A stretch of DNA of 64,000 nt from a virus (lineage: Duplodnaviria > Caudoviricetes): the IMG/VR virus record IMGVR_UViG_3300025678_000005. The stretch is one strand, 5' to 3'. Within the stretch, counting starts at the first letter, position 1; each line of letters begins with the position of its first letter. A program made the position numbers and the translations under genes. Positions 29,694 to 33,668 of the stretch are shown here, piece by piece. The notes below the pieces were generated by a model. The model was not told where the DNA came from, ran no database searches, and saw only the letters and a program-made list of their open reading frames with translations.

Positions 29694-30272
29694 ATGAAAA
29701 AAACTTTATTTTTAAATTCTAATTTATTAGATAAATTGGTTTCATGTAATACTTATAATACAATATTAGACCCAGATAATATTAGTATTGAAGAAAATTT
29801 GGATTACTTCTGTACTTCTAATGAAAATTCTTTATATACATTTAACTTTGATAAATATAAAGAAAAAATATTAGAAACTATTTCTGAAATATTACCAAAA
29901 AAGATAGAACTTTCAGGAATAGAAATTGAGCTTTCATTAGGTAATATATATTCTCCAAATGAATATAATTTTAATAAAGACAATGTTGAAATAATCGTTA
30001 CATTAGATGTAGACAAGTTATATGATATTGTTAAAGATGATGAAGCATTTGATAGTTTTTTAAATAAAGAATATAGTTCTTATGATGGTTTTATGTCTTT
30101 TAATCCAAATTCTTTAAAAGATTGGAATAATGAAAATGATGATGACAGAAAAGCTTCAACTGCAATCAATTATTTATTACAAAAAAATAATTTTCATAAA
30201 ATTGATGAATATGAAATTTATAATTTTATGGAATATGATATAACTGATTTTATCGTAAAAACAGATTTATAA
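29694..30272 (+). CDS. acidic hypothetical protein
   Basis: SP.EYNF..D and SYDGF.SF pattern. Confidence 0.55.
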   Translation: MKKTLFLNSNLLDKLVSCNTYNTILDPDNISIEENLDYFCTSNENSLYTFNFDKYKEKILETISEILPKKIELSGIEIELSLGNIYSPNEYNFNKDNVEIIVTLDVDKLYDIVKDDEAFDSFLNKEYSSYDGFMSFNPNSLKDWNNENDDDRKASTAINYLLQKNNFHKIDEYEIYNFMEYDITDFIVKTDL

Positions 30273-30621
30273 AAAACATTAATTTTATGAACAATAATAT
30301 TTTAAGAGATGCAACTTTAATAGATTCACAAAAAGATGTTGATAATATAGAAGATATTTTAAGTTATCAAAATATAAAACAGAAATCATTTATATTATCA
30401 GATTATATAAACTATTGTAGAAATAAACAAAAAGATGTTGGGGAAATAATTATATGTGCAGAACATATGTGTGTTAAAAAATTTAAGAAAAAAACCAAAC
30501 AGCAGGCTTTTTGTTGCACTAAACATAGAAAAATATTTTGGTCAAAATTAAATATGTTGTAAAAATTTTAATAGTTTTGTTTATAAAATTTAATTGTAGA
30601 AATTATATAAAAAATTTTTAA

Positions 30622-30629
30622 TATCTTTG
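30622..30629 (+). promoter_or_regulatory. Bacteroidota sigma-A -7 box
   Basis: TATCTTTG matches TAnnTTTG; intergenic, upstream of the tRNA-like element. Confidence 0.6.
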
Positions 30630-30710
30630 TATTAACAGTACTTGTGGAGCATACCATTAGAACTGCCTTCAAGTCATTTTTAAACATATTATAAGTATAT
30701 TGTAAGCTCA

Positions 30711-30772
30711 TGGCGCCAAGCATAGACTGGTAGATGCTATTAGTGATCAAGGTTCATCTCCTTGGGGGTCAA
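30711..30772 (+). tRNA. tRNA-like element or pseudo-tRNA lacking the anticodon arm
   Basis: Acceptor TGGCGCC/GGGGTCA (6 of 7 pairs), D arm GCAT-AGACTGGTAG-ATGC, T arm CAAGG-TTCATCT-CCTTG; only 10 nt between the D and T arms. Confidence 0.6.
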
Positions 30773-30844
30773 AATTTTAAGAGTAATAGCAATATATTTA
30801 ACTATTATATGTTTTATTCTAAATAATTAAAGATGTGACTTATA

Positions 30845-30938
30845 AAACAACGTTGAGCGTATGTGCTGTGCAGCCTTGCACGTACTTTCAACATATAAAA
30901 CAGTTTATTGGCTGCATAGCATATACGCATTGTTGTGC
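30845..30938 (-). repeat. attC-like site 1
   Basis: Minus strand GCACAAC...GTTGTTT; 19-bp imperfect inner palindrome 30857-30875 / 30910-30928. Confidence 0.7.
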
Positions 30939-30960
30939 GTAGTGCTTTAATAATCAAAAA

Positions 30961-31164
30961 ATGGAATATAAAGGTAAAGTTTATGCAAAAATTAACGGCA
31001 AATACATTGAATGTACAGAAACCGTGCAACAATTAGAAGATAAAATATCCAAACTTGAAAGTGCGTTGGATAAAATTGCTAATGGCACACAACCATACAA
31101 TGAAAGAGAGGCTTTTATATTTGTTGATATTGCGAGACAAATAGCGAGCGATGCTATTTCTTAG
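30961..31164 (+). CDS. gene-cassette ORF 1 (67 aa, hypothetical)
   Basis: Flanked by the complementary sequences GTTGTGCGTAGTGC (30932) and GTATTACGCACAAC (31164-31177). Confidence 0.7.
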   Translation: MEYKGKVYAKINGKYIECTETVQQLEDKISKLESALDKIANGTQPYNEREAFIFVDIARQIASDAIS

Positions 31165-31170
31165 TATTAC

Positions 31171-31303
31171 GCACAACGGCTACTTGTAAGAATAGTAGCC
31201 GTGAAAAACGCAGGAAAGTTTGATTGAAACACAATAGTTTAATAACCGATGATAGCTCTAAAAAGACCACATAACAGGCTATTATTTTTACAAATTGTTA
31301 TGT
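31171..31303 (-). repeat. attC-like site 2
   Basis: Minus strand ACATAAC...GTTGTGC; inner arms TTGTAAGAATAGTAGCC (31184-31200) and GGCTATTATTTTTACAA (31277-31293). Confidence 0.7.
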
Positions 31304-31315
31304 GGCGTTATTATT

Positions 31316-31474
31316 ATGGGAACTTATGCAATATGGTATAGACCCGTGTGGGGGCAAATGACAAGGTATGTTGAGTATGTAAAAGCAAACAATGCCAGAC
31401 AGGCAGAAATAAAATTCTATGCTACAAGTGCGGGGGACAATTGCCAAAGCATTATATTAATAGAGAGGTGTTAA
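31316..31474 (+). CDS. gene-cassette ORF 2 (52 aa, hypothetical)
   Basis: Not in the ORF track. MGTYAIWYRPVWGQMTRYVEYVKANNARQAEIKFYATSAGDNCQSIILIERC; flanked by GTTATGTGGCGTTA and TAATGCCACATAAC. Confidence 0.65.
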   Translation: MGTYAIWYRPVWGQMTRYVEYVKANNARQAEIKFYATSAGDNCQSIILIERC

Positions 31475-31484
31475 TGCCACATAA

Positions 31485-31826
31485 CAATTATATTGGTATT
31501 ATATATCTTCCTATGATAACTTAACAGAAGAATTTATTGAAAAATATCAAGATAGAATATATTGGCCATCTATTGCAAAATATCAAGTTTTATCAGAAGA
31601 CTTTATTAGAAAATATAAAGACAGATTAGACTGGATTTATATTTCTACTTTTCAGATCTTATCTGAGTCATTTATAAGAGAGTTTAAAGATTATGTAGAT
31701 TGGATATGTATTAGTGAAAATCAAAAGTTTTCTGAAGAATTTATATGTGAATTTAAAGATAAAGTATATTGGAAGGCTATATATAGTTTCGGATTACCTG
31801 CAAGCACTAAAGAAGAAATAGAATAA
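31485..31826 (+). pseudogene. tryptophan-repeat protein (23-aa LSE.FI..(Y/F).D...W..I...Q repeats), 5' end cut off by the cassette block
   Basis: About 4 tandem repeats in an open frame with no start codon; the frame begins right at the AAC end of the cassette block. Confidence 0.7.
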
Positions 31827-31942: not shown

Positions 31943-32365
31943 ATGAAAAAGATTAGAAAAAACATTTTTGAAACTAATAGTAGTAGTACTCATTCTGTTG
32001 TTATAAAAGAAGGAGAGTTTAAAAATTTTCCAAAAAATATTAATTCTTTAAATATAACTACAGATGATTATGGATGGGAAAAGCATACTTATACTGATTT
32101 TACAGATAAAGCTTCCTATGCTTTAACTTATGCAATTAATTATGGTACTAAAAAAGATTTGAAAATGCTTGATAAAATATTAAAAGAGCAGTTGAATATT
32201 AAAGATATAAAATATGATGGCCTTACATTAAAACAAGCATTGAACTATGTTGGAAAAGATTCTAGAAAATTTGGATATATAGATCATCAGAGTGTAGAAG
32301 AAGCAAGTAAAATATTTAAAGATGAAAATAATTTAAAAAGTTTCTTATTTTCAAAAGATTCATAA
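31943..32365 (+). CDS. FETNSSSTHS-motif protein 1; last 9 codons displaced by the IS to 33640-33668
   Basis: MKKIRKNIFETNSSSTHS..., GYIDHQS; removing the IS restores ...SKDSYFKTDNDNM*. Confidence 0.8.
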   Translation: MKKIRKNIFETNSSSTHSVVIKEGEFKNFPKNINSLNITTDDYGWEKHTYTDFTDKASYALTYAINYGTKKDLKMLDKILKEQLNIKDIKYDGLTLKQALNYVGKDSRKFGYIDHQSVEEASKIFKDENNLKSFLFSKDS

Positions 32366-32464
32366 AATTCGGCTCAAGGAAACCCCGAAGTCTTTAGCTT
32401 CTGGGAGGAATTGAGCCACTATTCCTTCTTTTGTTGAATTTAACATAATTATTTCTTTCAAATA

Positions 32465-32496
32465 TTTGAATATCTCAAAACTATTTTGTATCTTTG
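32465..32496 (+). promoter_or_regulatory. Bacteroidota promoter for tnpB
   Basis: -33 TTTG (32465) and -7 TATCTTTG (32489) 20 nt apart; ATG follows 4 nt later, so the mRNA is near-leaderless. Confidence 0.7.
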
Positions 32497-32500
32497 TGGT

Positions 32501-33634
32501 ATGAAATTGACCTTGCAGATTAAGCTGCTTCCAACTGTCGAACAAGCCGTGATGCTGAAAAATACGTTCAGCGTTTTTAACGAGGCTTGCAACACTATCT
32601 CGCAGATAGCGTGGGAACGCCATGCGTTCAAGCAGTTCAGTCTGCACAAGGAAGTGTATTATCCCATCAAGGAAACATATCATCTCTCTTCCCAGCTTGT
32701 CGTGCGTGCAATCAGTAAAGTTGCCGATGCGTACAAGCTCGACAGGAAGAAGCAGAGGCACTTTAGGGAGTTCGGGGCTATCACCTACGACAGCCGTGTG
32801 CTTTCCTACAGCATGTCCAAGTCCGTCTGTTCCATCTCGCTTGTCGGAAGCCGTGAGAAGATAGCATATACCTGCTACCGTCCGCAGCTCATGCAGTATG
32901 CAAAAGGGGAAGCCGACCTCGTTCTTATCAAAGGAAAGTTCTACCTCTACCAAACGATAGATATTCCCGATGAGCATGAGGAGAACGCAGAGGACTTTAT
33001 CGGTGTCGATATGGGCATTACGGACATTGTATCCGTCTCTGACGGCACTAACATTTCCTCTGATGAGGTCAAGAACATACGAAACAGATACAACAAAGTG
33101 AGAGCTTCTGTCCAGTCTAAAGGCACTCGCAACTGTCATAAGTTGCTGAAACGGTTGAAAGGACGTGAGAGAAGATTCGCCACCATTGTGAACCACCGCA
33201 TCAGCAAGCAACTCGTAGCAAAGGCAAAGGAAGAGAACAAGGGTATCGCCATTGAGGACTTGAAGAACATCCGATGGGGCATGAACTCCAAGAAACGCAG
33301 CAGGACGTTCCGCAGGAGGAGTAACTCGTGGAACTTCTACCAGCTCCGTTCCTTTATTGAATACAAGTGCAAGGTGGCTGGCATCAAGATTGTCGCCATT
33401 CCGCCTGCCTACACATCGCAGACCTGTCATGAGTGCGGACACATAGGTATTCGCAACGGCAAGCACTTTCACTGCACGCACTGTGGCAATGTAGCAGACG
33501 CAGACGTAAACGCTGCTCTGAACATCGCCACATGGGGGTATGTAAACACCCATGAAAGATGGGATTTGTTGTCGTGTCCTATACATGATGATTTTTCTAC
33601 GTCTAAAGCCCACAAGTCTTTAGCTTGTGGGTAG
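32501..33634 (+). CDS. tnpB: TnpB RNA-guided endonuclease
   Basis: RuvC-I IGVDMG, RuvC-II IAIEDL, zinc finger CHEC..CTHC, RuvC-III DADVNAALNI; YTSQTC. Confidence 0.93.
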   Translation: MKLTLQIKLLPTVEQAVMLKNTFSVFNEACNTISQIAWERHAFKQFSLHKEVYYPIKETYHLSSQLVVRAISKVADAYKLDRKKQRHFREFGAITYDSRVLSYSMSKSVCSISLVGSREKIAYTCYRPQLMQYAKGEADLVLIKGKFYLYQTIDIPDEHEENAEDFIGVDMGITDIVSVSDGTNISSDEVKNIRNRYNKVRASVQSKGTRNCHKLLKRLKGRERRFATIVNHRISKQLVAKAKEENKGIAIEDLKNIRWGMNSKKRSRTFRRRSNSWNFYQLRSFIEYKCKVAGIKIVAIPPAYTSQTCHECGHIGIRNGKHFHCTHCGNVADADVNAALNIATWGYVNTHERWDLLSCPIHDDFSTSKAHKSLACG

Positions 33635-33668
33635 TTTACATTTTAAAACTGATAATGATAATATGTAA

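Follow-up and report, generated by a model that had tools for sequence, protein, structure and literature searches.

A probable orphan two-cassette array of an integron-like recombination system in a phage of Bacteroidota-type hosts

How does a phage come to carry two small open reading frames (ORFs), each closed by complementary ends of its own and each led by a long hairpin, as a distinct block among its genes? The question is raised by positions 30852-31485 of a stretch of 64,000 nucleotides, called the window here, from IMG/VR virus record IMGVR_UViG_3300025678_000005 (Caudoviricetes); the window is part of a phage genome of 138.5 kb with a GC content of 26.7%, and the block sits amid small + strand genes. 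A preliminary description, made from the sequence alone, had taken the block for integron-like cassettes inserted by an IntI-like enzyme at a secondary GTT site in a phage gene. Our reading, to which we give a probability of about three in four, is that it represents an orphan two-cassette array of an integron-like recombination system in use among phages with Bacteroidota-type hosts. The published record that we found holds only a few such sites, called phage CALINs (clusters of attC sites lacking an integron integrase) by Qi et al. (2023).

The GC profile and a repeat finder confirm the outline given in the preliminary description, namely a GC-richer block with two bracketed ORFs, hairpins and AAC at both ends (30849-30851 and 31483-31485). 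GC amounts to 31-37% in the block (0.31-0.375 over 30700-31500) versus 15-24% on both sides. The parts are given below from left to right; here and throughout, L-numbers denote the viral contigs or loci compared and X-numbers public sequencing runs.

30833 to 30851, + strand: left flank ending in AAC, phage backbone common to all close relatives; carries ATG-TGA
30852 to 30931, + strand: hairpin A, an 80-nt element of the short class and the folded site for unit 1, from inverted repeat and folding
30932 to 30945, + strand: 5' arm of the ORF1 bracket, an inverted repeat that begins GTT and has G at stem position 11
30961 to 31164, + strand: ORF1, 67 amino acids, member of a family with 35 homologous clusters
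31164 to 31177, + strand: 3' arm of the ORF1 bracket, ends AAC, a recombination border where the homology of 12 loci ends (31177-31179)
31178 to 31296, + strand: hairpin E2, a 119-nt element of the long class and the folded site for unit 2, from homology and covariation
31297 to 31310, + strand: 5' arm of the ORF2 bracket, an inverted repeat
31316 to 31474, + strand: ORF2, 52 amino acids, rare, with only 4 homologous clusters
31472 to 31485, + strand: 3' arm of the ORF2 bracket, ends AAC, right end of the array; homology resumes at 31475-31480 in L014, L017, L018, L020 and L022
31486 to 31496, + strand: junction motif after the last AAC, 3 nt and then TATAT, from alignment with recombinase-linked arrays

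Hairpin A has five unpaired nucleotides before and three after a stem of 19 bp, which includes two G.T pairs and closes a loop of 34 nt; the repeat finder joins 30857-30875 to 30910-30928 (19 nt, 89%), and the computed dG (folding free energy) is -19.2 for the coding strand and -17.2 for the complement. The long stem of E2 joins 31184-31200 to 31277-31293 and is 95% paired in six relatives. Around ORF1 the bracket repeat pairs 30932-30946 with 31163-31177 (15 nt, 87%), and around ORF2 it pairs 31293-31310 with 31472-31489 (18 nt, 94%); in L003 and L005 the ORF2 arm pair also occurs, with different ORFs inside. A group I intron or another structured RNA with ORFs in its loops was suspected first; searches of the block with ARAGORN and with Rfam, which contains no attC model, at gathering and at permissive thresholds gave nothing relevant.

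The ends of the block are not arbitrary, because the homology of other contigs starts or stops there and two independent studies join 31174 to 31483. BLAST of the window against 16 contigs that encode the closest ORF1 homologues shows that, in unrelated contexts, similarity of 91-100% begins at 30930/31 or at 30849 and ends at 31177-79, and these points are the exact ends of the ORF1 repeat or of hairpin A. The unrelated contexts in which the ORF1 unit lies include a DNA methylase neighbourhood, DUF3850/DUF7736, DUF932 and HTH_39, among others. Homology to L009, L011, L012, L013 and L015 starts at 30930/30931, and hairpin A accompanies ORF1 in four upstream contexts (L008/L010, L017, L021 and the window). 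On the left side, L014, L019 and L024-L030 are 99-100% identical through about 30851 and then diverge or end.

Natural alleles show whole units coming and going. Four public runs, from four studies, were compared with the window as contigs rather than raw reads, and in them the uncovered stretch 31238-31438 is informative only where contigs span the gap. A deletion allele is present in L017, L018 and L020, which share a backbone of 99-100% identity and join 31177 directly to 31480; likewise, contigs of runs X4 and X7, from two studies, skip 308 nt and pass from 31174 to 31483, with a 3-nt ambiguity that matches AAC. A replacement allele is found in L014, L016 and L022: in the place of unit 2 stands another one, 333 nt long, whose ORF has 70 codons; runs X2 and X5 likewise carry a unit with the 70-codon ORF there. 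Other units follow 30851 in L024 and L025, and another element follows 30852 in run X4; ORF2 is missing from the contigs of all four runs. The phages compared are near-identical, come from separate wastewater and digester studies, and differ by whole cassettes cut at the same bases. The preliminary reading of the units as mobile cassettes of integron-like kind, with hairpin sites and ends that complement each other, and as units swapped among phages, is upheld by the alleles and the architecture, with at least six contexts for ORF1 and alternative alleles in near-identical backbones.

The genome carries a second array at C1 66080-66702, outside the window, about 8.5 kb before its first position and about 39 kb from the block. 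An 88-codon ORF closed by a signature bracket (C1 66134-66358) is followed there by an element of the 119-nt class and then by a unit with a 70-amino-acid ORF that is 85-96% identical to the unit beside the Trp-repeat frame (see below) in relatives. BLAST of the block elements against their own genome gave no second copy, and this array was revealed later by a structural scan. In the strain represented by L024 and L017, a segment like this second locus lies between 30851 and hairpin A. The genome has four strict signature brackets on the + strand, versus about 1.1 per shuffled genome with both strands counted.

The same plan recurs in about 20 loci, including Cellulophaga phage phi19:3, Polaribacter phage P12002L and many viral contigs. 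Each small ORF is closed by a private stem of 13-14 bp that starts GTT(A/G) and ends (C/T)AAC. Six inner pairs of this stem vary by cassette yet remain complementary, and because about 25 differing arm pairs all do so, there is strong covariation evidence for the predicted pairing of the arms with each other. Stem position 11 is a fixed G.T on the coding strand, which is an A.C on the complement. The elements between the ORF stems fall into two length classes (76-90 nt or 112-123 nt) and fold with 5-6 free bases on the 5' side, an imperfect stem of 17-20 bp, a large variable middle and 1-3 free bases on the 3' side. The coding strand folds more stably than the complement in 25 of the 29 elements.

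Comparison with other phages, which the preliminary description had proposed, placed the ORF1 unit at other loci and E2-like elements beside different genes; E2 is 77-80% identical to intergenic elements of phi19:3, L002, L003 and L005, and the flanking genes differ. In the E2 family the long stem is 95% paired and contains two invariant G.T pairs and one compensatory pair. A 10-nt direct repeat (31267-31276 and 31477-31486) gives E2 an internal copy of the ORF2 3' arm. In relatives this copy covaries with the downstream 5' arm, yielding two mutually exclusive helices; the competing helix is 100% paired, with three compensatory pairs, and the copy may be a switch or the footprint of an insertion.

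Arrays always start with a hairpin after an AAC-ending flank and finish with a 3' arm, and the indels take out one hairpin together with the ORF that follows it. The unit is therefore a hairpin plus its downstream gene, the mirror image of the gene-then-attC order of integrons. This agrees with the polarity noticed at the outset, opposite to that of canonical attC and running along phage transcription.

Modules of this kind could in principle serve regulation. The promoter-early stem-loops (PeSLs) of T4-type phages carry conserved promoter and terminator sequences and recombine by homology (PMC2839356, PMC4122927); like the elements described here, they are stem-loop modules between small non-essential genes in hyperplastic regions, where relatives differ by whole-gene indels. 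If the hairpins served transcription or mRNA processing, and the units were shuffled by homologous or illegitimate recombination and replication slippage with no dedicated enzyme, better folding of the coding strand with its G.T pairs would be expected, as for any RNA structure. The start of some ORFs within the preceding hairpin element, two junctions that fall within hairpins, and the known ability of PeSLs to mediate such shuffling (PMC2839356, PMC4122927) point the same way. We nevertheless hold this explanation to be unlikely. Unlike PeSLs, the elements differ in sequence: the neighbouring elements A, E2, E3 and E4 have only a few bases in common and hence offer no homology for exchange. 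No terminator-like site was found, and promoter-like (sigma-70) sites numbered 13 against 11.3 expected, which is no excess. The borders, moreover, are exact within 3 nt across many independent contexts, and arrays of the family are linked to a site-specific recombinase at a fixed distance of 51-52 nt.

That recombinase is not encoded by the phage itself. The preliminary description had correctly stated that the window encodes none, and the whole source genome of 138.5 kb has no tyrosine recombinase (PF00589), serine recombinase (PF00239), Y1 transposase (PF01797) or NinG. Because of this lack the array is an orphan, like a CALIN, for which the criterion is at least two clustered attC-type sites and no integrase; here two hairpin sites, candidates for sites of attC type, lie 250 nt apart with zero recombinases within 138.5 kb. 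A PF00589 scan of the records behind the loci revealed, in a complete phage of 51.9 kb (L035/L040), a recombinase of 280 residues whose gene comes directly after the array. It has the domains SAM_4 and Phage_integrase, its catalytic motifs are intact in sequence, and its nearest solved relatives are archaeal XerA/XerC-like (4a8e, 2.5e-32), VchIntIA (2a3v, 5e-31) and XerD. The alignment with VchIntIA falls into two stretches, and because 23 residues stand where IntI4 has 66 (about 43 fewer), the IntI-specific domain is missing. Judged by its sequence, the array-linked enzyme is an Xer-like tyrosine recombinase of the Xer/IntI clade and not an IntI, so the IntI-like enzyme postulated in the preliminary description is replaced by an Xer-like one.

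The linkage between arrays and enzyme is consistent. Around homologues of the recombinase at 42-100% identity (L040-L044), 16 signature brackets lie upstream on the same strand, one lies downstream and none is on the opposite strand; L044 has nine brackets in a row. Two remote recombinases, at 26% identity, have zero signature brackets. The gap between the last AAC and the ATG of the recombinase is 51-52 nt in five of five loci, with the recombinase co-oriented with the array, and four of the five recombinase-linked arrays have a junction of AAC, 3-4 nt and TATAT, which occurs in the window as well (31486-31496). From its sequence, the right flank of the block looks like the recombinase-proximal, attI-like junction of complete arrays and not like the random secondary GTT site that had been assumed. 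In L035 the last cassette before the recombinase holds a gene of the ORF1 family, and the window cassettes are therefore tied to recombinase-linked arrays. In L003 (3027-3830) the array-linked recombinase is split into a SAM-like piece of 75 amino acids and a catalytic piece of 159 amino acids, either a decaying gene or an assembly error. For the tyrosine recombinase gp036 of phi19:3 and for larger ORFs near E2-type elements, an initial context search gave no consistent link.

Canonical attC sites acquired from an integron of a bacterium, with a host IntI acting on them, would make the block a true integron fragment. Its AAC...GTT ends, its imperfect hairpins of attC length and the self-complementary cassette ends all fit such an origin, and HattCI has called a site of the same layout an attC (PMC9892861). 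That study describes CALINs in 17 phages, and the site, P12002L_attC1, lies between two methyltransferase genes of Polaribacter phage P12002L (PMC9892861); it has exactly the layout of the window family. We regard this origin as quite improbable. The linked enzyme is some 43 residues short at the IntI4-specific domain, the ORF1 family has no relative in 185,579 bacterial species genomes, the end stems have 13 bp and not 7, and the hairpin stands ahead of the gene. Complete integrons, furthermore, are almost missing from Bacteroidetes according to IntegronFinder 2.0 (PMC9024848), and the P12002L site failed with IntI1 (PMC9892861).

The resemblance to integrons is nonetheless extensive. As in integrons and CALINs, small promoter-less cassettes with complementary ends form arrays, and orphan arrays exist. 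As in attC, each site is an imperfect hairpin with AAC...GTT at its ends; its inner stem is imperfect, a spacer is left unpaired, the loop varies, and the length falls within 57-141 nt. The recombinase, where present, belongs to the Xer/IntI clade and is found at one array end beside a fixed short junction. Unlike in integrons, it has no IntI-specific domain, and it follows the genes in the same orientation; the hairpin comes before its gene, so that polarity is inverted relative to gene direction; the end stems have 13-14 bp with a fixed G.T, where integrons have 7 bp; the extra unpaired bases belong to the arm that adjoins the exchanged border (5' side, coding strand) and not, as in attC, opposite the cleaved arm; and the apparent hosts are Bacteroidota, where integrons are nearly missing. 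We found no account in the literature of this family, whether of its private stems of 13 bp, its fixed G.T and its two length classes or of the Xer-like enzyme.

We infer single-strand chemistry, a cut position within AAC and action in trans, and propose the following scheme for an integron-like array of this kind. In single-stranded form, in which the coding strand folds better, the gene stem, the short unpaired spacer and the hairpin stem would jointly mimic the core site of a tyrosine recombinase. At the foot of these stems, at or beside AAC, one strand would be cut and exchanged by the Xer-like recombinase, with excision, insertion and reordering of units as the outcome. The point of entry for new units would be the recombinase-proximal end; the window lineage is polymorphic at the end that matches it. 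Because its own genome has no recombinase gene, movement of this phage's array would call for an enzyme supplied in trans, for instance from a co-infecting phage or from a resident element.

The proposed action of an Xer-like enzyme on folded sites has parallels. CTX-phi-type integrative mobile elements exploiting Xer (IMEX) fold single-stranded DNA into a dif-like site, and pdif modules occur on Acinetobacter plasmids. As in those systems, an Xer-type enzyme would act on a folded or paired site, inverted sites bracket the modules and no transposase is involved; unlike in them, the sites are not copies of dif, the enzyme is phage-encoded and not the host XerCD, and the cassettes are stacked in arrays.

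A single-strand mechanism of another kind would be that of miniature transposons. Units related to IS200/IS605 insertion sequences (IS), palindrome-associated transposable elements (PATEs) or REP doublets forming hairpins (REPINs), moved by a Y1 (HUH) transposase in trans, would insert 3' of YAAC without duplication. Such elements resemble the units described here in that their hairpin ends are strand-specific, a short motif is conserved at the ends and no duplication accompanies insertion; in our loci the target is not duplicated, every insertion follows YAAC and every unit closes with it, hairpins stand close to the left end, there is a strand bias, and a TnpB-only IS lies 900 bp away. Yet no Y1 transposase (PF01797) was found in the genome, the enzyme beside the arrays of complete systems is an Xer-type tyrosine recombinase, and the right end is without a compact hairpin, its stem spanning the entire ORF so that whole genes are enclosed. 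We consider transposition of this kind very improbable.

Several observations weigh against an integron-like system. No recombinase of any tested family is present in the phage's own genome, and the action of a recombinase on the block is putative. Some junctions lie inside hairpins, L025 diverging after 30904 and L024 after the 5' arm of a hairpin, and a 100%-identical ORF1 stands behind hairpin A in the window versus a different 118-nt element in L015. These junctions and the occurrence of ORF1 behind two hairpins mean that homologous or other recombination also acts here, and the latter means that the unit of hairpin plus ORF is not absolute. Finally, P12002L_attC1 was the only site of six that IntI1 did not recombine (PMC9892861).

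What the array interrupts, if anything, is a separate question, which concerns the frame to its right:

31485 to 31826, + strand: Trp-repeat open frame, 113 codons, no ATG, GTG or TTG start, outside the cassettes; read from the sequence and not among the listed ORFs

Removal of 30852-31485 does place ATG TGA CTT in frame with the Trp-repeat, as the preliminary description had noted; its suggestion that a gene is restored in this way does not hold, codon 2 being a stop. TGA is a stop in the code of the + strand genes, and the upstream frame is closed three codons earlier. The Trp-repeat frame matches positions 140-240 of the 292-position profile phrog_3532, its homologues have N-terminal leaders of which it lacks at least 18 residues, and it has a start codon in no allele. 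It is probably what remains of a backbone gene truncated at the 5' end, and its repeat sequence is similar to the junction motif. The empty site expected in related phages was sought with left- and right-flank patterns, and no allele joins 30851 to 31486 in any viral contig or run; the right-flank pattern gave 0 matches for it in metagenome contigs. With no empty-site allele in any contig or run and a Trp-repeat frame devoid of its leader, insertion into an intact phage gene is not borne out. Upstream, an inverted repeat GTT...AAC (30017-30244) matching at 12 of 13 positions lies within a 192-codon ORF (29694-30272); all relatives keep it, it has no G.T at position 11, and it may have arisen by chance.

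Of the cassette ORFs, ORF1 has a weak match to phrog_2990, and the two closest of its homologous clusters were traced to the 16 contigs. In the family alignment about 30 N-terminal residues are almost invariant, and the C-terminal halves are unrelated in sequence and length; such a pattern hints at exchange within the gene or at a modular protein that keeps one shared N-terminal handle. Pfam searches with ORF1, ORF2 and the Trp-repeat frame were negative, and isolated phages held no match to the two cassette ORFs by tblastn or to the L006 cassette stretch by blastn.

The remaining surroundings concern the phage genome at large. In the minus-strand late genes at 37539-63923, frames of 1,000-2,900 codons, those of the long genes reaching 2,600-2,900, exist only with TGA read-through, with 13-20 in-frame TGA codons each, and the + strand genes of 1-37000 have zero in-frame TGA; by these features the genome resembles that of a crAss-like phage with a stage-specific code. 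Upstream of the array, 30563-30832 is non-coding with 30-34% GC and without calls by ARAGORN or Rfam; a minus-strand ORF of 60 codons (30568-30750) has a Shine-Dalgarno-like motif 7 nt ahead of its TTG. The TnpB-only IS (32365-33639, about 50% GC) encodes a Cas12f-like/OrfB protein of 382 amino acids; the window and L015 have it. The close relatives L014, L017, L018, L020 and L023 lack it precisely, their homology passing from 32364 to 33640, and because of this exact empty site it appears from the alignments to be a recent insertion. As a host clue TnpB offers one relative only, a 44% match in an Abditibacterium metagenome-assembled genome.

The block of this phage is an orphan array that displays cassette turnover in natural populations. 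Beyond this instance, we think it moderately likely that crAss-like, flavobacterial and giant Bacteroidota-type phages share an integron analogue with a plain Xer-like enzyme, a site before the gene, private 13-bp stems with a fixed G.T, and orphans serviced in trans when phages co-infect a cell. If so, lytic phages would gain a site-specific market for small accessory genes. The gain and loss of small orphan genes in the early regions of lytic phages is usually ascribed to illegitimate or homologous recombination, whereas the present case points to a dedicated site-specific cassette system for such genes. If confirmed, it would extend the integron principle to viruses of a phylum nearly without integrons, it would mean that the IntI-specific domain is dispensable for folded-site recombination, and it would provide a handle on finding accessory, probably counter-defence, genes of phages and on engineering such phages.

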